The notes below the pieces were generated by a model. It searched no databases, was not told the origin of the DNA, and was given only the letters and a program-made list of their open reading frames with translations. A DNA stretch of 59,145 nucleotides. Origin: a virus (lineage: Duplodnaviria; Caudoviricetes). Each line of letters begins with the position of its first letter. The stretch's first letter is position 1. This document shows, in pieces, positions 35,400-58,059 of the stretch. The position numbers and the translations under genes are program-made. The stretch covers positions 1-59,145 of the IMG/VR virus record IMGVR_UViG_3300017722_002103, one strand, 5' to 3'.

Positions 35400-35480
35400 T
35401 TGAGCTTCCTTTTCTGCATCGATCGAACTTCGACCGATGAAAGCATTTTATCACATGCTCAAAAATAAGCAAGGCCGTTT

Positions 35481-36196: not shown

Positions 36197-36294
36197 TTGA
36201 GCTTCCTGTTTTCGTCTTTCGATGAAACCGTTCTAAAGCATGCTCAAATTTAAGCAAGGGGGTCGTCGAAGGTTTTTTCGCCGACCCTTTCGCC

Positions 36295-36582: not shown

Positions 36583-36694
36583 TTTTGAGCTTCCTGTTTT
36601 TTTCGATCGATCGTCGATCGATGAAACCGTTCTAAACGGCTGTTCAAATTTAAGCAATAGGGGCAGCGAAACTTTTTTCGCCGCCCCGATCGCC

Positions 36695-37729: not shown

Positions 37730-38092
37730 TCTAGAGCTTCCCTTGTTTAGACGAAACCATTTCGTCTCTTGACCACGGTATGAACGAAACCGTTTCGGGA
37801 TGCAAGTGGTGGGTCGTATAAATTTATACGATTTTTTCAGGCGACATAAATGAACCAGAGAAACGGAAGCAGGAATTCGAGGATCGCGAAAACAACTGCG
37901 ACGCCCATCAACAGGCCAATTCCCACGCAAAGCGGAAGCCGCTGGTTAAGCCATTCCGACATGTTAGAAGCCTCCCAAGCTTGAGCCGAAGCTATACGGA
38001 TTTCTTTCGTATGAAAGCGGCGACGGCTCAAGCTTGTGGAAAACTTTCCGGGTCGGTTGACGGCTCGCCCTTATTCGTATGGAGCTACGCGA

Positions 38093-38377
38093 ATGGAAAA
38101 GACGAAGACGAAGACGACGACGAAGAAAAAAGCGACGAAGCCGGTTAAAAGCGACAAGCGCAATTTTCGGGACAACGCAATCACTCACGTTGCCATTCAC
38201 TTCGGAGGCATCAACGGGCTTGCACGCGCGATCGAGGAAGCTCCCAATACTGTGCAGTATTGGATTGAAGCCGGTCGCATCCCCGAAGCTCACGCGAAGA
38301 AGATCGTCGCCGCCATGAAGGCGCGTTGCGGCGAAGTCGTTCGCGCGGCGACTGTCGGGGAAGTGCTTAGGCCATGA
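38093..38377 (+). CDS. Cro/YdaS-like HTH regulator
   Basis: HFGGINGLARAI...PNTVQYW...GRIP; first gene of the rightward replication operon, divergent from DUF932. Confidence 0.7.
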   Translation: MEKTKTKTTTKKKATKPVKSDKRNFRDNAITHVAIHFGGINGLARAIEEAPNTVQYWIEAGRIPEAHAKKIVAAMKARCGEVVRAATVGEVLRP

Positions 38378-49019: not shown

Positions 49020-49195
49020 ACCGGGCGGGGGGCGCGAAAAAACGCGCATCTTCCCCCATCCGCATTTGCTCAGATTTGAGCAAGAGCGTCAAGCGTCTTT
49101 TTGTCGAAAACTTTTTTCCGATGAAACGGTTTTATCGCTTGCTCAAATTTGAGCATGTGCTAAACCTGTCTTCATCAGGAACGAAGGAACGGCAA

Positions 49196-49822
49196 ATGAA
49201 CAATCAACTTCGCGGCCATTGCCAGATTTGCGGACGTCAGCAGGCGGTCCCTAACGGTCACATGTCTCACCACGGCTACCGGGTTCGGAACGGCTGGTTC
49301 GAAGGGGTCTGCAACGGTCACAGCTTCGCCCCGATCGAAAAAGATCGCGACGTTCTGGATCGCATGTGCGACGGGATTTCGAAAGATTGCGCCAAGCTCG
49401 AAGCCGAAGTCGCGGCACTCGAAGCCGGATCGATCGATCCCGACTATATCGGATGCTCGCGCCGGGAAGTGGTGGGCGGTCGCTGGCAGGAAGTGCAGTA
49501 TCCGGTTCCCTACTGCTACGGCGACGCATACGAACAAAGGGTCGCACGGGCTCGCCTGATAAGCTCGAAGAGATACCGGGCCGAACAGGGCCGCTCGTTC
49601 GTCGCCTTCATGGTGAACCTCGCTGACGCCGTTAACGGCAAGCCCCTGATGGAAGTCGAGCGGAAAGAAGCTCCCGCCCCGCTGGCGAGCCGGGTCATCG
49701 GCGCTCGCGGCGTGATGCGGATGAAATACGCGGAGCGGGGCCGGGTTTACTGGCAGGACGAGCGCGGGTTCTCAAGCTGGATGGGCGCTCAATCGTGGCG
49801 CAAAATGCCAAAGGCGGACTAG
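49196..49822 (+). CDS. early protein with Cys/His metal-binding motif
   Basis: GHCQICGRQQ...SHHGY...WFEGVC; ATG after promoter element 49140. Confidence 0.75.
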   Translation: MNNQLRGHCQICGRQQAVPNGHMSHHGYRVRNGWFEGVCNGHSFAPIEKDRDVLDRMCDGISKDCAKLEAEVAALEAGSIDPDYIGCSRREVVGGRWQEVQYPVPYCYGDAYEQRVARARLISSKRYRAEQGRSFVAFMVNLADAVNGKPLMEVERKEAPAPLASRVIGARGVMRMKYAERGRVYWQDERGFSSWMGAQSWRKMPKAD

Positions 49823-49861
49823 GCCGGACAGGGAGGCAAAAAAAAGCCTCCCTGTCCGGTC
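49822..49861. terminator. strong hairpin with A8 loop
   Basis: CCGGACAGGGAGGC-A8-GCCTCCCTGTCCGG, a perfect 14-bp stem. Confidence 0.55.
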
Positions 49862-50060
49862 TTGAGAACGGGTCGCAAAGATTTTTCGTATAAAAGCATT
49901 TTACCCTCTTGCTCAATTTTGAGCACGTCCCTATATTGTCTGTATCAGGAACGGAGAAATCAGATGCGGTTCGAAATTTTGGTGTCGGGAATTATGGCGG
50001 CGGTTTCGCTCTTCGCGCTCGCCTCGCTCGTTGTGATGATGTGGATTTAAGGGGAACCCG

Positions 50061-50345
50061 ATGAACGTCGAAGCAATCAAGGCAGCGTGGGCGGAATGGG
50101 ATGCGGCGAGCGCCGCGACCGAAGCCGCTTGGGGAATGGTCAAGGCAGCCGAGCGCGGGCTTCTGAACGGCTCCAAGCGCGCGGCGATCGCGCGGGAGCG
50201 CAAGGTATGGGCGGCGACGCTCGATCGCACTGACGCGGCCCGGAGCGCCTTGGCGGGGCTCCCCGATCTTGACGAAGTCGCGGCATGGGAAGCCGAGCAA
50301 GTGGCGATCGCCGAAGCCGAAGAAAAGCAGGGCAAACTTTTTTGA
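50061..50345 (+). CDS. helical early protein
   Basis: AAGGGG RBS; stop runs into the next cassette head. Confidence 0.65.
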   Translation: MNVEAIKAAWAEWDAASAATEAAWGMVKAAERGLLNGSKRAAIARERKVWAATLDRTDAARSALAGLPDLDEVAAWEAEQVAIAEAEEKQGKLF

Positions 50346-50420
50346 AAAAAATCGAAAAAAGCTCTTGCTCAATTTTGAGCATGCTATAAAACGGTTTCAT
50401 CAGGAACGAAGGAACGAGAC

Positions 50421-50606
50421 ATGACGAACGCCCCCGCCCCCGAATTCAAGACTTTCTTCGCCACGAAGGAAGAGGCGATCACCGCCGCGAAAAACTGGAT
50501 CGCCGACGATCCGTGCGATTTCAGCTACAAACTCGCGCCGCAAGCCGATGGCCGCTTCGCGGTTTCGATCGTCGACTTTTTCGATAACTCGCTAATCCCG
50601 CTCTAA
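50421..50606 (+). CDS. early cassette protein
   Basis: After element 50366 and AAGGAAC RBS. Confidence 0.7.
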   Translation: MTNAPAPEFKTFFATKEEAITAAKNWIADDPCDFSYKLAPQADGRFAVSIVDFFDNSLIPL

Positions 50607-50620
50607 GGAAGGAAGCTCGA

Positions 50621-50923
50621 ATGTCTAGCGCTCAAAATTTTACGGAAGCTTGGAACGCTGCGGCGGGGGCTTCGGCCCTTGGCGGGTTCCGGTCATGCGG
50701 TCGCGCTTATGTCGTGATCGTTAACAAGGCGGACAGGGCTCAGGCTCGCGCGTGGTGTAAGGCGAACCGCAAAATCTGGACGGGCGCTCAAGGCCACGTC
50801 CCGAACGCGATTTATTGCGGTTATGACAACGCGAGCGGCGTCGAGCTTGGCAGGGCGGAAGCCTTCGCCTTGGAACTGAAAGCGCGCGGCGTGGTCGCGT
50901 ATATGGACGCAATGGGGGATTGA
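50621..50923 (+). CDS. early protein
   Basis: AGGAAGCTC RBS; SCGRAYV, IYCGYDNASG motifs. Confidence 0.7.
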   Translation: MSSAQNFTEAWNAAAGASALGGFRSCGRAYVVIVNKADRAQARAWCKANRKIWTGAQGHVPNAIYCGYDNASGVELGRAEAFALELKARGVVAYMDAMGD

Positions 50924-50925
50924 AC

Positions 50926-51156
50926 ATGCGCAACGACATTGATCGCCAGCTTGACGCGCGACAGGGCCGCAGGATGGCCGCAGAGGGGCGCATGCTCGAC
51001 CGGCTGGATATCCTAGAGCGCCGGGCCGAAGCCCTTATCGGCGAGCTTGTCAGGGCCGGGAAGCCCGCGTTCTACATCAACCTTCGGAACGGAAAGACCC
51101 GCGAAGGCTCGCGGGCGGACCTGATCGGCTTCCTTGTCCGCAATCGGTACGTTTGA
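50926..51156 (+). CDS. early protein
   Basis: GGGGG RBS; ORF 50920..51156. Confidence 0.6.
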   Translation: MRNDIDRQLDARQGRRMAAEGRMLDRLDILERRAEALIGELVRAGKPAFYINLRNGKTREGSRADLIGFLVRNRYV

Positions 51157-51244
51157 AAATAATTCGAAGAAAAATGAAAAAAGGACTTGCTCAATTTTGA
51201 GCAAGGGTTTAAGCCTGTCTTCATCAGGAACGAAGGAAGCTCAC

Positions 51245-51499
51245 ATGACGAACCCGGCTCAAGTCTCGCAATTCGTCCGCGACGTGGTCGAAATCAACGG
51301 TCGCATCGCCCTTGATCGCCTCTTCGTCCGCACCCGCAAACTTTCCGATCGCCTCGAAACTCGCGAGCTTCGGACTAAGAAAAACACGTTTCAGGCTTAC
51401 CACTGGCAAGCCGATATCGGGATGGTCGTCGTCCTGACGGCGCGCGGGAACGTGCTGCAACTGACGATCGAAGAATTCTGGGCGGCTCACGCAAAATAA
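51245..51499 (+). CDS. early cassette protein
   Basis: After element 51188 and AGGAAGCTCAC. Confidence 0.7.
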   Translation: MTNPAQVSQFVRDVVEINGRIALDRLFVRTRKLSDRLETRELRTKKNTFQAYHWQADIGMVVVLTARGNVLQLTIEEFWAAHAK

Positions 51500-51591
51500 T
51501 TGAAAAAAGGGCTTGCTCAATTTTGAGCAAGCGTTTAAGACAGGTTCATCGGCGGCGGCGGTCGCAGCCGGGCAGGAAACAGGAAGCTCAC

Positions 51592-51834
51592 ATGACCACG
51601 GAAATCAAAACCTTCGAAGTCGGCAAATCCTACTGGACCCGTTCGGCTTGCGATTATGACTGCATAATCCGCATGACCGTCATTTCCCGCACGGCGAAAT
51701 TCATCACCGCCGAAGTCGGCGGCAAGACGAAGCGCCTTGGCGTCAAAGTCTGCAAATACGACAACGCCGAACGCTGCGACCCGTGGGGCCGCTTCAGCAT
51801 GTCGCCGGTTATCAGCGCCGATCGTCAAGGCTAA
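51592..51834 (+). CDS. conserved-looking small phage protein
   Basis: FEVGKSYWTRSACDYDC...RTAK...GRFSMSPVISA; after element 51514. Confidence 0.7.
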   Translation: MTTEIKTFEVGKSYWTRSACDYDCIIRMTVISRTAKFITAEVGGKTKRLGVKVCKYDNAERCDPWGRFSMSPVISADRQG

Positions 51835-51892
51835 CCCCGAAACCCCTAACCCGGCGCAAGCCGGGGCCATTCGCACCACAAAGGAAGCTCAC

Positions 51893-52306
51893 ATGACCCG
51901 CAAGAAAACCCAGCTCGAACCGATCGTTCGCACGCCCGAAGAGCGCGAAAAAGAACATCGCGACTTTCTGGCCCGCGTCGCCGAAAGCGAACTCGAAAGG
52001 CTGAACAAGGAAATCGCCGAATTCGCGGCGGACCTGATGAAGAACCCGGCGCGCGCGCTGGAATGGTCGCAGTCCGTTTTTGAGAAGGCAGCCGATCAGG
52101 CGATCGTCGCCCGCCTAGGGCGGCAACTCGAAGCCGGGACCACGCGCCAATCGCTGAACGATTGGGCGAGGCAGGAAGCCGAAGGGGCGATGAGCGAAGC
52201 GCTTTCGACGCGATCGACGTCGCCGCAGGTTAACGAAATGGCCCTGATGCGCGGGCGCGCTTGGCGGAAATGGCTCCCGATAATTGTCTTCGAAATCGAA
52301 AAATAA
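51893..52306 (+). CDS. helical early protein
   Basis: AGGAAGCTCAC RBS. Confidence 0.7.
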   Translation: MTRKKTQLEPIVRTPEEREKEHRDFLARVAESELERLNKEIAEFAADLMKNPARALEWSQSVFEKAADQAIVARLGRQLEAGTTRQSLNDWARQEAEGAMSEALSTRSTSPQVNEMALMRGRAWRKWLPIIVFEIEK

Positions 52307-52386
52307 CGCTTGCTCAATTCTGAGCATGCTATAAAACGGTTTCATCGGGGGCGGCGATCGCCCCCGGCAGAAAAAGGGAAGCTCAA

Positions 52387-52695
52387 ATGTCAGTTGCCGA
52401 AATCATTCTGGAACAGCTTGGCGGAAATCAGTTTCGCGTCATGACGGGCGCGAAAAACTTCGTCGCCGGTAGCCGCGATCTTTTCTTCGCCCTGCCGAGA
52501 ATGCCGGGCCTGAACTTTCACCGCGTCAAAGTCTGCCTGATGCCCGATGATGTCTATGTCGTGATGTTCTACCGCATCAGCGGCGGTCATCTGAAATGCT
52601 TGAAGTCGATCGGCAACGTTTACGCCGAAGACCTTCGCGGCGTCTTCGAGCGCGAGACGGGCCTGCGGACGTCCCTGACAGCGATTTACGCCTGA
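52387..52695 (+). CDS. conserved-looking small phage protein
   Basis: AEIILEQLGGNQFRVMTGAKNF...DDVY...NVYAEDL..VFE.ETGL.TSL; after element 52311. Confidence 0.75.
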   Translation: MSVAEIILEQLGGNQFRVMTGAKNFVAGSRDLFFALPRMPGLNFHRVKVCLMPDDVYVVMFYRISGGHLKCLKSIGNVYAEDLRGVFERETGLRTSLTAIYA

Positions 52696-52753
52696 CGGAC
52701 AGGGGAGCGCCAGCCGCTCCCCAAACCCTCACCACGGATCAAAGGAAGCTCAA

Positions 52754-52954
52754 ATGAAGACCACAATGCGCCTGATCGATAACACGCCGCCCGAAGTTGT
52801 CCCGAAGGGCAAGCGGACCATTCGCGAAACCGTATGGGGAAACACAAAGGGATACATCGGCGGTCGCTTCTGGAAAATCATAGGCGTGACCTACGCCGTA
52901 GGAACGAAAGAAGCGGTCGCCGACTTTCTTGCGGGGAGGGATGAAGAAAATTGA
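52754..52954 (+). CDS. early protein
   Basis: AGGAAGCTCAA RBS; RETVWGN..GYIGGR. Confidence 0.7.
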   Translation: MKTTMRLIDNTPPEVVPKGKRTIRETVWGNTKGYIGGRFWKIIGVTYAVGTKEAVADFLAGRDEEN

Positions 52955-53041
52955 AAAGGGGGCTTGCTCAATTCTGAGCATGGTATAAAACCGTTTCATC
53001 GGCGGGGCGGTTCCCGGCGAAACAATTCAGGAAGCTCAAAA

Positions 53042-53248
53042 ATGGCGACGAACTGGAAAGAACTCGAAGACAAGATCAGCCTCGCGCTCGAAGACAACGA
53101 AGGCGTTTGGGTCGTCAACTCGCCCGCGTTCTTCGCGGCCTGCGACAAATATGAAATCGAGCCCGGCGACTTAGAAGACGCGATCGGCGAAGTCGCCTGT
53201 CAGCAAGCCGAAGACCGGGCGCATGATCACTGGGGCGCATATGACTGA
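53042..53248 (+). CDS. small, strongly acidic early protein
   Basis: 68 aa, D/E-rich; after element 52965. Confidence 0.7.
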   Translation: MATNWKELEDKISLALEDNEGVWVVNSPAFFAACDKYEIEPGDLEDAIGEVACQQAEDRAHDHWGAYD

Positions 53249-53321
53249 AAAACTTGAAAAAGGGGCTTGCTCATTTTTGAGCAGTCGTTTAAGCCTGTCT
53301 TCATCAACGAAGGAACACGCC

Positions 53322-53582
53322 ATGACGAACGCACAAATCAACGCCGAAGCGGTCCGCCTGATGGCTCGCGCTGGCCGCGCCGCCCCGAACAACTCAGGCG
53401 CGATGAAGCAGGCGAAGGAATTCTTCGACGCCAACTTCGCGGCGATGGAAGCCGACACGCGCGTTTCCGCACGCTGGATCGGCATTTGGACCCCGAAAGC
53501 CGATCGGGTCGAATTCGGCGGCGCTTACGTCGTTGCCTGCGACGAAGGTCTTTTCGTCAACGGTCGCCGGGTAGCAAAATAA
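53322..53582 (+). CDS. early cassette protein
   Basis: After element 53268. Confidence 0.7.
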   Translation: MTNAQINAEAVRLMARAGRAAPNNSGAMKQAKEFFDANFAAMEADTRVSARWIGIWTPKADRVEFGGAYVVACDEGLFVNGRRVAK

Positions 53583-53673
53583 TTCAGAAAGGCTCTTGCT
53601 CAATTCTGAGCATCGTATAAAACGGTTTCATCGGTCGGGACGGTCCCGCCGAAACAATTTGAAGGAAGCTCAC

Positions 53674-54306
53674 ATGACCCGCTCTTACCCCGAAATCAAC
53701 GTTCCCGATCACATCGACAATCAAGCAGCGTATATCCGCGCGGCACATCGCCGGATCGACGACATGCGCGCCAAGGCGGCGGCAAAAAAGCTCCACGCTT
53801 GGCTGATGGAAGACCCGACGCGGTCGGACATGATGGCCGCGATGCGCCCCATGATCGATTTCGAGAACCGCCGCAGCGAGAACGGCGAACCCGGCTTCAT
53901 GGGCAAGATGATGAAGGCCATTCACGAATGGGGTTCGCTGTCCGCCAATCAGGAACGCGCGGTTCGCGAAAGCCTCGCCCGGTCGGCGGCTCGCAAAGCC
54001 GAGCGCCAAGCGGCGAAGGTCGAGCAAGCGGCAGTCGACGTCGAGCGCTCGCAATACATCGGGATCGTCGGCGCTCGTTCGGTCTACTCGCTCACGATCC
54101 GTCGCACGGTCGACTTTGTCGGCGCGTTCGGACCGGGCGTGGTGAACGAAATGGTCGACGTGGACGGGAACGTGTTCGTCTACATCGGCGCGCGCCTTGG
54201 CGATGTCGGGCAAGCGATCAAGATCAAGGCCACTGTGAAGCGCCACAACGAGCGGGAGGGCGTGAAGCAAACCGCCCTGTCGCGCCCCGCGATCGTGAAG
54301 GAGTAG
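53674..54306 (+). CDS. early protein with probable C-terminal OB-fold
   Basis: WGSLSANQ and SQYIG.VG.R...D.DGNVFVY...IKATVK.H.E.EGVKQT.L.RP; after element 53597. Confidence 0.7.
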   Translation: MTRSYPEINVPDHIDNQAAYIRAAHRRIDDMRAKAAAKKLHAWLMEDPTRSDMMAAMRPMIDFENRRSENGEPGFMGKMMKAIHEWGSLSANQERAVRESLARSAARKAERQAAKVEQAAVDVERSQYIGIVGARSVYSLTIRRTVDFVGAFGPGVVNEMVDVDGNVFVYIGARLGDVGQAIKIKATVKRHNEREGVKQTALSRPAIVKE

Positions 54307-54311
54307 GGAGC

Positions 54312-54578
54312 ATGGGAAAGGTCAACAGCGAAACCCCGATGACGGCGCAGCAAGAGGAAACCATGCGGGCGCTTGAGGGGTACGCGGGGCAAGGGCCGGT
54401 CACGGTCCAAACCTCTTACTATGATCAGAGCGGGCGTGGCGTCGCGTTCTTCCCCGATGATTGGAAGCCAGTGGCGATCGGCCTGAAGATGACGACGCTG
54501 CGGGGGCTGGAGAAGCGCGGCAAGATCAGGATCGTCGCCGCGTACTGGCGCGGCGCGACGGTCGAGGTTCTCTCATGA
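54312..54578 (+). CDS. winged-helix-like protein, paralog A
   Basis: MTAQQEETM...WKPV...TLRGLEKRG.I.I...YWRGA.VEVL. Confidence 0.65.
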   Translation: MGKVNSETPMTAQQEETMRALEGYAGQGPVTVQTSYYDQSGRGVAFFPDDWKPVAIGLKMTTLRGLEKRGKIRIVAAYWRGATVEVLS

Positions 54579-54829
54579 CGAAGCTGATCGGGAGGCACTC
54601 GCCGCTAACGATGCATCAGACGGAAACGATGTCGTTTCTGTCTAAGCATGTCGGGCAGATTGTCGACGTCCAGACAGCGGAGGCGCACCGCGACGGGATA
54701 CCGGCTTGGCCGCAGAACTGGCGTCCTGTCGGGCGATCGTCGCAGCAGACTTTGCGCGGGCTGGAAAAGCGCGGGCTGATCACGATCCTAGACACCTACT
54801 GGCAAGGCGCGCGCATACAGGTTTTGTGA
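54575..54829 (+). CDS. winged-helix-like protein, paralog B
   Basis: LTMHQTETM...WRPV...TLRGLEKRGLITI..YWQGA.IQVL. Confidence 0.65.
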   Translation: MTKLIGRHSPLTMHQTETMSFLSKHVGQIVDVQTAEAHRDGIPAWPQNWRPVGRSSQQTLRGLEKRGLITILDTYWQGARIQVL

Positions 54830-54921
54830 CCGGCTCAAAATTAAACGTTTGACCCGATGTTCAAAATCGAGCATACGGGGGATGCAGCAAGAGGCTGCGA
54901 TTTGGAAAAGGAAGCTCGAAA

Positions 54922-55221
54922 ATGAACAAGCAACGCAGGAAGGCAATCGAGGCTCTTCGCGCCCGGTTCGACGCGATTAATTACGCGGACATGAAAGGCG
55001 AACTCGAAAACATCAAGGAAGAACTCGACGCTCTGAAAGACGAAGAGCAGGAATATAAGGACGCCATGCCCGAGAACATGCAGGGCGGCGAGAAGGGCGA
55101 AATCGCCGACGCCTGCATCGATGCGATGGACAGCATCGTGAACGCGATCGACGCGGTCGTCGAAGCGCTCGACGGTCTGGACAACGAAGTCAACTTCGAC
55201 GGCGCGATGGGGGATGGCTAA
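54922..55221 (+). CDS. acidic helical-hairpin phage protein
   Basis: MNKQRRK...DEEQEYKDAMPENMQGGEKGE motif; AGGAAGCTC RBS. Confidence 0.75.
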   Translation: MNKQRRKAIEALRARFDAINYADMKGELENIKEELDALKDEEQEYKDAMPENMQGGEKGEIADACIDAMDSIVNAIDAVVEALDGLDNEVNFDGAMGDG

Positions 55222-55508
55222 TGTCCAAGCCAGAGAAACAGCCCGGCGATTACGTCGCCTACTGCGACGCGAATGGACGGATTGCCTTCGGGCAATCCGT
55301 ACCTTCGGGGCAACTGATGATTGCATCAGGGCCGCGCGAGAAGCTTGTTGAAATGGTTTCGGGCGCGGCGCGTCACGCCTATGACGGCGAGACTTTGCTT
55401 GTGCCGGGAGTGCCTGAAGCCGAGAGCCTGACTGACGGTCTGGAAGCGCTCTTGCGGTTTCGCGATCGCATACGGGCTTACTTCGAGCGAAACGGATTGA
55501 AGGCATGA
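55221..55508 (+). CDS. protein resembling those annotated 'host nuclease inhibitor' in Mu-like/alphaproteobacterial phages
   Basis: AYC.ANGRIAFG..VP.G...IASGP...ARHAYDGETLLVPGVPEA, recognised from memory. Confidence 0.55.
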   Translation: MSKPEKQPGDYVAYCDANGRIAFGQSVPSGQLMIASGPREKLVEMVSGAARHAYDGETLLVPGVPEAESLTDGLEALLRFRDRIRAYFERNGLKA

Positions 55509-56068
55509 AGGCGTCGGAAATTCGGATCGTCGACCTTGCAATAACCGCTCGCTATCAAGGCGAGCGGCGCTTGCAATGGCGCGTCGAAGGGTCGGGCGAT
55601 CGGTACTTCGTCAAGATCAGCGCGAACCCTGTAGCGGTCGACCTGTCCGCTATCGACGTCCTGTTCAGGCTCCCGCCTCAAGAGGCGCAGCGCGGCGATC
55701 CCGATTGGTTCGAAGTCGAGCGCCTGACGACGTCGCGATGGATGCGCTTTGTTCGCGCGGCTTGGAAAGCCGCCGAAGCGCAAGACCTGTTCAGCGCGGA
55801 AGCGTTCGCGCGAGCGGATGCGAAGCGAAGGATCGAAGCGGAAATTCAGCGCCGGGCCGTCGACCTTTACGCAAGGCTTTCGAACGTGGTCGTCGAGTAT
55901 GACGGGACGTCTTCGGGCGATGACTTCTACCTGACGACGATCGACGAAGCGCGAGCCCTGCTTCGGGGCATCGAAGCCGAAGCGGCGGAAACATACGAAA
56001 GCGTTTTGAAGGCGCTGCAAGGCGCGCTCAAAAAAGCTCAGACATCAAAATCGAAGAGGAAGGCATAA
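55505..56068 (+). CDS. hypothetical protein
   Basis: ATGA overlap in operon. Confidence 0.6.
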   Translation: MKASEIRIVDLAITARYQGERRLQWRVEGSGDRYFVKISANPVAVDLSAIDVLFRLPPQEAQRGDPDWFEVERLTTSRWMRFVRAAWKAAEAQDLFSAEAFARADAKRRIEAEIQRRAVDLYARLSNVVVEYDGTSSGDDFYLTTIDEARALLRGIEAEAAETYESVLKALQGALKKAQTSKSKRKA

Positions 56069-56565
56069 TGTTCGGGCCTACAGGGGAGCGCCTAGCGAGG
56101 CGCGCAAGGCGGGGCGACGTCGAAGCCGAAGACATGATCGCAAGCGAGGCGGTCGGCGCTGGCGTTCTGCATATGGGCTGCGGCGATGGCTCGATGATCA
56201 TCGAAGAGCTTTACGATCTTTCGATGTATGCGATCGGGGTCGACGACAACGCGAAGAAAATCACGACGGCGATGCGCGCGAGCGCTGGCAAGGGGCGTTG
56301 CGAATTCGTCTGTCGCCCGCTCGAAGTCACCGGCCTGTCAGGGTCGAGCTTCGATCTGGTCTTCGGATACAACCTCGCCCGGCGCGGGCTGATGGCGATC
56401 GACGAAGCGCGTCGCCTGCTTCGTCATCGTGGCGTCTTCATTAACGTCGAGCAGAACGAGCGCCGGGGCGATGCGCAGAATATCGGCACCGTGTTCCCGA
56501 ATGTCGACGCGACACGCTTCGGCATCCTGTCGCGCCTGACGATCTTCCGGGCGGTGAAGTCGTGA
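56068..56565 (+). CDS. class I SAM-dependent methyltransferase-like protein (compact/degenerate)
   Basis: VLHMGCGDG motif I, IGVD motif II, SFDLVF and RRLLRHRGVF. Confidence 0.65.
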   Translation: MFGPTGERLARRARRGDVEAEDMIASEAVGAGVLHMGCGDGSMIIEELYDLSMYAIGVDDNAKKITTAMRASAGKGRCEFVCRPLEVTGLSGSSFDLVFGYNLARRGLMAIDEARRLLRHRGVFINVEQNERRGDAQNIGTVFPNVDATRFGILSRLTIFRAVKS

Positions 56566-56603
56566 CTAACATTCAACAGCAAGCACAACGGAGAACTTAC
56601 AAA

Positions 56604-56843
56604 ATGACTACGAAGAAAAAACCAACGAAGACCACGAAGGCCAAGGCCAAGCCGAAGGCAGCGCCGAAGCGTTCATCGCTCGCGCTCTGGCAAGAGAAGC
56701 GCGCGCTGACGGACACCGAAGCCGCAGCCGCGATCGGGCTCGCGCGCAATACGTTCGTGAAGCACCGCGACGCCAGCGAAGCGCCGCTGACGACACGCCT
56801 CGCCCTTGCGGCCCTGATGATGGATTTAGAGCCGCTGGCATGA
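56604..56843 (+). CDS. small XRE-like HTH protein with Lys-rich N-terminus
   Basis: LALWQEKRALTDTEAAAAIGLARNTF; GGAGA RBS. Confidence 0.7.
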   Translation: MTTKKKPTKTTKAKAKPKAAPKRSSLALWQEKRALTDTEAAAAIGLARNTFVKHRDASEAPLTTRLALAALMMDLEPLA

Positions 56844-57028
56844 TGAAGGCGGACAAGGGAGAATTGCCGAAGGGCTTCACTTGCTCTTGCGGCGAGTATC
56901 ATCGGTATACGGAGTATGTATACGCGCATTGGCGCGAGGCGCTCCACGTCACATGCGAAGCGTGCAAAACGGTCTGGCATGTTTACGCGGGCGTCCCGTC
57001 AATCCTGAAGGGCAAGGGCAAGCGCTGA
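56840..57028 (+). CDS. small zinc-ribbon protein
   Basis: FTCSCG.YH...VYAHW...TCEAC. Confidence 0.6.
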   Translation: MMKADKGELPKGFTCSCGEYHRYTEYVYAHWREALHVTCEACKTVWHVYAGVPSILKGKGKR

Positions 57029-57234
57029 TGTCGACATGGTTCGCAACGCACCGGATCGCGTGGATAGTGGAAACGCTTTCGATCTTTGGATACATCAACC
57101 GGGCGCACGTCATGCGCAAGTTTGATGTGTCCGAAGCGCAGGCGGCGAAAGACCTTCGCGATGTGCTTCAGCAGTATCCGGGGCTGATGACTTACGACAC
57201 GTCGGCGAAGCGCTACGTTTCGCGCGCGTGGTGA
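57028..57234 (+). CDS. stand-alone CapW/BrxR-type winged-helix domain
   Basis: RIAWI...L..FGYINRAHVM.KFDVSEAQAAKDL..V....PG.M.YD.SAKRYV resembles the N-terminal wHTH of WYL regulators; no WYL domain follows. Confidence 0.65.
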   Translation: MSTWFATHRIAWIVETLSIFGYINRAHVMRKFDVSEAQAAKDLRDVLQQYPGLMTYDTSAKRYVSRAW

Positions 57235-57435
57235 CGCCTGCTTAAAATTGAGCTTTGGTAATCTTTATCACGCTTTGTTGATTTTTGAGCACGCATGTAA
57301 CGCTTGCCAGTAACCTTTCGCTATGGGGTGGCGTGCGTATGTTTGTCATGCGCTTCGGCGCTGATGTTTGAAAATCAAGCGGGCGGGACACGGCCCTAAA
57401 CCGTTCCCGCCCATCACTTAGAGGATACCTAAGCA

Positions 57436-57964: not shown

Positions 57965-58059
57965 AAACGCCGCTCCGAAAGGGGCGGCGTTTTGCGTTGC
58001 TCAAAATTGAAAACGGCGCGGGTAGGAAGCTCAACTCTTCCCCGCGCCGTTTTCTTTTT
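57965..58059. terminator. two tandem hairpins, bidirectional terminator between convergent genes
   Basis: AAACGCCGCTCC-GAAA-GGGGCGGCGTTT (57965-57992) and AAAACGGCGCGGG...CCCGCGCCGTTTT followed by CTTTTT. Confidence 0.75.

Follow-up and report, generated by a model that had tools for sequence, protein, structure and literature searches.

The window analysed here is the single IMG/VR virus record IMGVR_UViG_3300017722_002103 in its full length (59,145 bases, estimated to be about 95% complete). Annotation of the scanned open reading frames (ORFs) reveals a siphovirus-like layout, and no integrase was identified among them. GcrA is specific to alphaproteobacteria, and a homologue of this cell-cycle regulator encoded near the start of the record hints, on the strength of a profile match, at an alphaproteobacterial host. 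The gene considered below, encoding a 68-aa protein denoted P0001, lies near the opposite end, within the following arrangement:

First 31 kb: terminase, portal, capsid, tape measure and tail fibre genes
38-48 kb: recombination and replication genes
48-58 kb: many small genes
256-834, + strand: homologue of the cell-cycle regulator GcrA (PF07750, E 9.3e-29)
54922-55221, + strand: phrog_4068 gene (PHROGs)
55221-55508, + strand: Gam-like host nuclease inhibitor (phrog_1518, E 1e-20)
55505-56068, + strand: ORF upstream of P0001 in the same run
56068-56565, + strand: stand-alone SAM methyltransferase domain (PF13649, E 5.6e-7)
56562-56843, + strand: weak Xre-like helix-turn-helix (HTH) protein
56840-57028, + strand: 62-aa ORF with a CxC...CxxC pattern (zinc-ribbon-like), directly upstream of P0001
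57014..57028, + strand: AAGGG ribosome-binding-like stretch and TGA of the upstream gene, read from the sequence
57028..57234, + strand: P0001 gene, a 68-aa stand-alone CapW/BrxR-type winged helix-turn-helix (ORF translation, profile and model)

The translation of ORF 57028..57234 (+) contains the exact strings quoted in an earlier, sequence-only reading of this DNA, which had placed the gene at the end of an operon. In agreement with that placement, the P0001 gene closes a co-oriented, tightly packed run (54922..57234) in which stops and starts overlap or abut, and is followed by a 200-nt gap. The ATG of P0001 overlaps by one base with the TGA that ends ORF 56840..57028, with AAGGG located 10 nt upstream, an arrangement that by its sequence is one of translational coupling. 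The third-position GC content of the gene (0.74 vs 0.60 for the genome) is, by the same kind of evidence, coding-like. Within the phage operon, P0001 is flanked by the zinc-ribbon-like ORF and a membrane-protein ORF; in this annotation, no defence system is apparent beside the gene. The presence of the Gam-like inhibitor and the methyltransferase lends this gene run a host-takeover flavour.

Relationship of P0001 to CapW and BrxR

Searches of local family libraries with P0001 yield no significant match (best E-value 0.11-0.12 in a copy of Pfam that lacks the PF26109 model, with HTH_DeoR at 0.12; 0.28 in PHROGs; no match in PADLOC or NCBIfam). However, precomputed Pfam 38.1 labels assign PF26109, WHD_BrxR, to 96-98% of the members of the two nearest ESM Atlas clusters (68-69 aa, mostly viral) and to all five of five close homologues. 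Searches against the PDB point to the same family. A single-sequence phmmer search identifies similarity to residues 11-71 of CapW (7tb6) with an E-value of 1.3e-3, a 6-sequence profile detects CapW with an E-value of 1.1e-7, and a 130-sequence profile retrieves three CapW structures (E 1.4e-15, 8.3e-15 and 5.5e-14) and two BrxR structures (E 4.9e-6 and 2.3e-5). All five distinct CapW/BrxR sequences are matched in the profile search, and the sole other match is a Fab, with an E-value of 0.9. The AlphaFold model of P0001 (pLDDT 94.5, pTM 0.81) consists of three helices and a two-strand wing:

Residues 3-20: helix 1
Residues 25-32: helix 2
Residues 36-49: helix 3, the recognition helix
Residues 54-57 and 62-65: wing strands

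In a Foldseek search started with this model, CapW and BrxR chains fill the first 12 places of the list (TMq 0.84-0.93), whereas the next best reach a TMq of at most 0.72. The resemblance to the N-terminal winged HTH (wHTH) of WYL repressors proposed in the sequence-only reading, with profile E-values down to 1.4e-15, is thus far beyond chance, and the structural match to CapW and BrxR on which that proposal depended is found in the predicted model (TMq 0.84-0.93). Together, profile and model comparisons confirm that P0001 is a true homologue of the N-terminal winged helix of CapW/BrxR. The viral structures that match best belong to uncharacterised or generic HTH proteins. In a collection of cultured phages, P0001 has only a weak match, in Paracoccus phage Shpa (E 0.3), and the DNA of the 7-kb right end has three trivial matches.

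The closest characterised relative is CapW (PDB 7TB6, 7TB5 and 9C5G), a CBASS-associated protein with the wHTH-WYL-WCX architecture, on which P0001 superposes with a TMq of 0.86-0.93 and an rmsd of 0.8-1.7 Å. P0001 retains the recognition-helix motif S-x-x-Q-A-S/A-x-D-L and the arginine that precedes helix 2. It differs from CapW in the low sequence identity (28-31%), with surface positions 5, 12, 15, 18-20, 27, 30 and 31 replaced, in the absence of the linker, WYL and WCX and hence of single-stranded DNA (ssDNA) sensing, and in being encoded in a phage early operon rather than beside a defence system. BrxR (PDB 7QFZ and 7T8K/7T8L), the repressor of BREX and defence islands, has the same fold (TMq 0.84-0.91) and the same Pfam domain name but is more distant from P0001 in sequence than CapW. 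According to PMC9122588, mutations at R32 or at S42/Q45/S47 of Sm CapW abolish DNA binding. These residues align to R25, S35, Q38 and A40 of P0001, three of the four being identical, and in the short family the respective positions are occupied by R in 125/130, S in 115/130, Q in 109/130 and S in 90/130 sequences. All four published DNA-contact residues are therefore kept in the family consensus, a pattern compatible with putative DNA binding by P0001. Within the short family, the recognition helix is highly variable at its specificity positions (36, 37, 41, 44 and 45).

A short, mostly viral family without the WYL sensor

The winged helix had also been described as standing alone, without its WYL sensor, and this holds for the record as a whole: the WYL domain (PF13280) is absent throughout the 59 kb, and P0001 ends at residue 68, with nothing after the wing that could correspond to a WCX domain or support a domain-swapped dimer. 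Neither is WYL present in any of the 18 other virus records that carry relatives, among them six IMG/VR records that are at least 90% complete and the complete genome of phage Sonora. A HMMER search against 1.84 billion representatives identifies 411 clusters at E <=1e-3, including 84 at E <=1e-10. Among the best 150 of the 411 representatives, 128 are no longer than 110 aa and 147 no longer than 150 aa; WYL is present in none of the 15 longer representatives (0/15), and a search restricted to longer proteins yielded none. Of the 19 viral loci identified in a search with a 6-sequence alignment, 16 encode proteins of 66-78 aa, so that both length and stop position are conserved, and twelve positions are conserved in at least 90% of 130 short sequences. 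Viruses account for 50-81% of the ESM Atlas cluster members that have a record. An even sample of 301 alphaproteobacterial genomes presents a different picture: the profile matches 20 of them, 21 of the 22 matches are in frames of 285-400 aa, and each of the 17 full-length proteins extracted carries WYL. Given that the chromosomal matches are nearly all long and WYL-bearing, the short form appears to be essentially viral. The possibility that P0001 is one part of a split gene was considered and rejected, because WYL is missing from this record and the 18 others, the search restricted to longer proteins yielded none, and the length is conserved. Collectively, these sequence comparisons support the placement of P0001 in a widespread, mainly viral, sensor-less family, as opposed to a truncation.

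One relative of the short family, P0022 (271 aa), contains a C-terminal SH3 domain similar to R67 dihydrofolate reductase (PF06442, E 1.6e-17), which may serve as an alternative oligomerisation module. Short chromosomal copies were detected in two Bradyrhizobium genomes, one inside the 301-genome sample and its twin outside it (L145:347-1062 and L146:1126-1791); both show an apparent frameshift between helix 1 and the FGFINR motif and are probably decayed prophage remnants.

Comparison of the alignment columns in 130 short domains and 17 alphaproteobacterial full-length domains shows that the fold core is common to both groups, whereas a set of positions separates them:

Position 5: F/Y in 111/130 short, 0/17 full-length
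Position 12: W in 119/130 short, 0/17 full-length
Position 15: E in 110/130 short, 0/17 full-length
Position 19: I/V in 119/130 short, 0/17 full-length
Position 20: F/Y in 116/130 short, 0/17 full-length
Position 27: H in 110/130 short, 0/17 full-length
Position 30: R/K in 102/130 short, 1/17 full-length
Position 31: K in 116/130 short, 1/17 full-length

In a maximum-likelihood tree built from about 70 alignment columns, the 17 full-length domains, all of them alphaproteobacterial, form a clade that excludes all 130 short ones, with a support of 0.996. This well-supported split from the sampled host regulators suggests that the short family is not a recent copy of one of them. The positions that set the short family apart coincide with a predicted dimer interface. 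The homodimer prediction for P0001 yields an ipSAE of 0.65, compared to 0.00 for the best control, with 100% contact agreement across three runs and a partner pLDDT of at least 91. Of the proteins solved as pairs, 20 of 30 attain this mark, as does 1 of 23 solved as single chains; these counts hold only roughly here because a custom alignment was supplied, and the pass may partly reflect memory given that CapW/BrxR dimers have already been solved. The predicted interface is formed by residues 18-20, 27 and 30-31 (end of helix 1, turn and helix 2), which are family-specific positions. Thus, as far as the modelling goes, P0001 most likely forms a homodimer via a surface that was rebuilt in the short phage family.

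A relative retrieved in the search for the P0001 family led to a second group of stand-alone heads:

Stenotrophomonas phage Sonora MZ326860.1, 59853-60080 (L171:3480-3707): gp088, a 75-aa stand-alone CapW-type winged helix

This gene lies in a series of small genes close to the end of the complete 63.8-kb genome. Similarly to P0001, gp088 is a stand-alone winged helix of the CapW type encoded in a small-gene run near a genome end, without WYL and with an aromatic residue at position 20. It differs, however, in belonging to a separate lineage with another signature (Y4, A5, L12, F15, D30 and Y31) and in being much closer to solved CapW: a search with the single sequence of gp088 detects CapW of P. 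aeruginosa with an E-value of 4.9e-15 and that of S. maltophilia with an E-value of 3.7e-13. Relatives of gp088 comprise 77 further clusters (78 with its own) of 54-115 aa, some of them from Stenotrophomonas, Luteimonas and Frateuria records. In the tree, they form a clade of their own (0.976), which is placed with the full-length proteins at a support of 0.996 and apart from the P0001 family; hence, stand-alone heads form at least two lineages, and by cluster counts P0001 is a member of the larger one. Position 20 is Y in 74/77 members of the gp088 lineage and is aromatic in both short lineages, as opposed to E, Q or R in the 17 sampled full-length proteins and D, E or K in the solved ones.

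Among the switches by which bacteria step up immunity in response to DNA damage or infection, WYL repressors such as CapW and BrxR are understood best. An extensive family that consists of their heads alone and is found mostly in viruses appears not to be described in the searchable literature: no account of stand-alone phage copies was found in open full-text articles (that is, outside subscription journals), including the accessible portions of PMC9122588, PMC9122589, PMC9122601, PMC11662680, PMC12839542 and bioRxiv 10.1101/2025.11.13.688357, and the databases label the domain automatically.

Palindromic promoter-like units as a candidate target

The phage DNA contains ten perfect copies of the palindrome TGCTCA-N4-TGAGCA, compared to 0.03 expected, and 18 sites with at most two mismatches, compared to 1.5 expected:

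49067, 49140, 49910, 50366, 51188, 51514, 52311, 52965, 53268 and 53597 (span 49067..53612): ten perfect palindromes
63-78: near-perfect palindrome before the GcrA gene
35456-35471, 36241-36256 and 36641-36656: palindromes at 35.4-36.7 kb
54858..54873: near-palindrome with two mismatches, in the gap before the gene at 54922
57239-57254 and 57276-57291: two degenerate palindromes (two mismatches in each) in the gap that immediately follows the P0001 gene, a candidate target
57998-58013: palindrome site

All 18 sites are located in regions without structural or replication genes, namely, the genome start, 35-37 kb and 49-58 kb. Nine of the ten perfect copies are embedded in a promoter-like unit, which consists of an A-rich stretch, a TTG at the beginning of the palindrome's left arm and, further downstream, an A/T-rich box followed by a ribosome-binding site and a start codon, and each of these nine units precedes a small gene on the + strand; the copy at 49067, which has no such unit, lies just upstream of that at 49140. 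Two copies extend to a 20-bp palindrome. A consensus promoter scanner did not call the palindromic units. The near-palindrome at 54858..54873 is, from its position in the sequence, a possible promoter-operator of the run that ends in the P0001 gene. In viral contigs, a search for the palindrome identifies at least 118 stretches with a single match each, which is the chance level for the pattern, and a search for closer relatives of the phage via the protein encoded at 53674-54306 finds only three loci, at 35% identity. By eye, four of the units (51530-51590, 52327-52385, 52981-53040 and 53613-53672) differ from the others in having a GC-rich inverted repeat, situated after the promoter-like part and before the ribosome-binding site.

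The interpretation that accounts for these observations best, with a probability of about 40%, is that P0001 is a dimeric, sensor-less repressor of the phage's own TGCTCA-N4-TGAGCA promoter palindromes. The sequence-only reading had named these palindromes as an alternative to its first choice, host defence islands; the present analysis suggests that the palindromes are at least as likely a target. Under this scenario, the P0001 dimer would bind a palindrome of about 20 bp. PMC9122588 and PMC11662680 indicate that CapW/BrxR dimers bind sites of about 20 bp; both CapW (PMC9122588) and BrxR (PMC9122601) target palindromic sites in the promoters of the operons that encode them, and BrxR recognises inverted repeats of 10-11 bp separated by 5 bp (PMC9122601), compared to arms of 6-8 bp separated by 4 bp in the phage palindrome. 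The 18 sites would overlap the -35-like TTG and the spacer of early promoters, where P0001 would act as a repressor. PMC11662680 describes the release of CapW by ssDNA through WYL. With neither WYL nor WCX, P0001 would not be releasable by ssDNA, and accordingly a constitutive repressor is proposed. The 'uninducible repressor' function suggested earlier is in this respect reasonable by analogy, and the protein is probably a switch that cannot be turned off, as judged from the sequence and the model, with DNA binding being putative.

The P0001 gene is the last one in a transcription unit of this kind, so that its product would accumulate and eventually shut down early transcription by negative feedback. 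It is this simple feedback circuit, in which a small dimeric repressor is produced from a palindromic unit, that places regulation of the phage's own promoters first among the explanations considered. Repressors of the Cro/Aca type are small constitutive dimers that bind palindromes over promoter elements and feed back on their own operon. P0001 would work in a similar manner, although no relationship in sequence or fold was found between P0001 and these proteins. If P0001 indeed runs the phage's own promoters, it would be the regulator behind the 18 palindromic early promoters, which form an unusually regular set, and the case would reveal the source or the destination of the winged helix of defence regulators. 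The phage encodes other candidate DNA binders that could be matched to the palindromes, and the pairing with P0001 is therefore unproven:

38036-38377: weak Cro-like protein (E 0.004) adjoining three palindrome sites, a rival binder
54312-54578 and 54575-54829, + strand: two paralogous small proteins (88 and 84 aa) with a common TLRGLEKRG stretch and no family match, possible rival binders
256-834 and 56562-56843: the GcrA homologue and the weak Xre-like protein listed above, further rival binders

Among 40 deduplicated loci of at least 5 kb with a homologue, multi-copy palindromes are present in only two phage types; their sequences are not the same, and they resemble iteron or repeat arrays. 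In 47 loci, no common palindrome near the gene was detected beyond the GC-rich background (with mononucleotide shuffling as the control), and across 20 loci there is no conserved neighbour gene, the PHROG annotation of 149 neighbouring ORFs being mostly blank. This distribution, patchy and moron-like among small accessory genes, is more in line with a function directed at the host than with that of a core phage regulator. In one of the two phage types (L005:5220-5800, and likewise in L006), a repeat of about 38 nt with TGCATC-N5-GATGCA occurs nine times at 71-72-bp intervals in a stretch that lies 2.3 kb downstream of the winged-helix gene; these copies could represent an iteron array or a CRISPR-like array. 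In the other (L014:7926-8081), a 156-bp segment located 2 kb upstream of the winged-helix gene of that phage contains the 16-bp palindrome ACTTGTGATCACAAGT in five perfect copies.

Host-directed and other functions

The strongest competing explanation, although a doubtful one, is that P0001 occupies the operators of host repressors of the CapW/BrxR type or of the same fold, so that defence stays repressed even when the host regulator is released by ssDNA. This possibility draws on several observations: the only solved relatives of P0001 are defence regulators; the short form is essentially viral whereas the long, WYL-bearing form is chromosomal in the 301-genome sample; sensor-less copies, aromatic at position 20 in both cases, exist in at least two lineages; the P0001 gene is located among genes of the host-takeover type (Gam-like nuclease inhibitor, methyltransferase), and methyltransferases are encoded within about 2.5 kb in 3 of 17 annotated viral loci; and the family is widely variable at the specificity positions in the recognition helix (36, 37, 41, 44 and 45). 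However, the putative operators of the 17 alphaproteobacterial full-length genes share no common motif, and none resembles the phage palindrome; the split from the sampled host regulators (0.996) shows that the P0001 family is no recent mimic; and only 20 of the 301 sampled genomes carry such a regulator. Furthermore, induction driven by CapW is slow and dispensable against lytic lambda but matters for prophage induction, according to PMC11662680. Given this slow induction, its dispensability in lytic infection, and the lack of a detected integrase, what this phage would gain from blocking host operators is questionable.

The evolutionary counterpart of this explanation, under which phages at least twice split off the CapW/BrxR head, dropped the sensor, and rebuilt a self-dimerising head that locks host defence operators off, is rather unlikely. 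Should P0001 nevertheless bind host operators, it would represent a new counter-defence class that acts at the level of transcription by blinding the alarm for infection and DNA damage, and proteins of this type would be ready-made 'uninducible' controls for studies of WYL regulation. Sonora provides a handle for the anti-defence idea, being a cultured phage with a host species that is also the source of a biochemically studied CapW.

Small winged-helix proteins are common phage regulators, and P0001 might instead be a phage transcription factor with another target, such as an activator or repressor of middle or late genes or of non-defence host genes, or a DNA-binding accessory factor in replication or packaging. 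This is an unlikely alternative to repression of the phage's own palindromes. It is compatible with the uncharacterised or generic HTH proteins found as the nearest viral structure matches, with the location of homologues downstream of a terminase-like gene in two phages and near recombination genes or integrases in others, and with the R67-DHFR-like SH3 domain that P0022 has in place of the sensor, but there is no positive evidence for any specific target and no motif common across the loci.

It is very improbable that P0001 disables a host CapW/BrxR regulator by pairing with the winged helix of one of its protomers, the dominant-negative variant of the earlier proposal. The surface of the P0001 family is basic and hydrophobic (R18, F20, H27, R30 and K31) whereas the same positions in the full-length proteins are acidic and aromatic (F18, W19, E20, D27 and E30), so that the charges would be complementary. 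Nevertheless, disabling a repressor would raise defence expression, to the detriment of the phage, and the homodimer prediction for P0001 passes by itself. Full-length dimers are held together mainly by domain-swapped WYL and WCX contacts, as PMC9122588 describes, and a 68-aa head could not replace these contacts, which makes this the least likely of the variants that had been put forward. Finally, the notion of an inactive remnant of a captured full-length regulator, which would fit a protein that corresponds to no more than the N-terminal quarter of a full-length regulator and has decayed, frameshifted counterparts in two Bradyrhizobium genomes, is hardly tenable in view of the conserved length (16/19 loci at 66-78 aa; 128 of the best 150 representatives at <=110 aa), the twelve positions conserved at 90% or more, the family's own signature and the coding-like third-position GC content.

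Among the full-length regulators, one Bradyrhizobium genome contains two matches in frames of about 300 aa, located 17 kb apart (G001:C1:758881-759078 and 775906-776031), with WYL confirmed in the first; this pair may mark a defence island with two such regulators.
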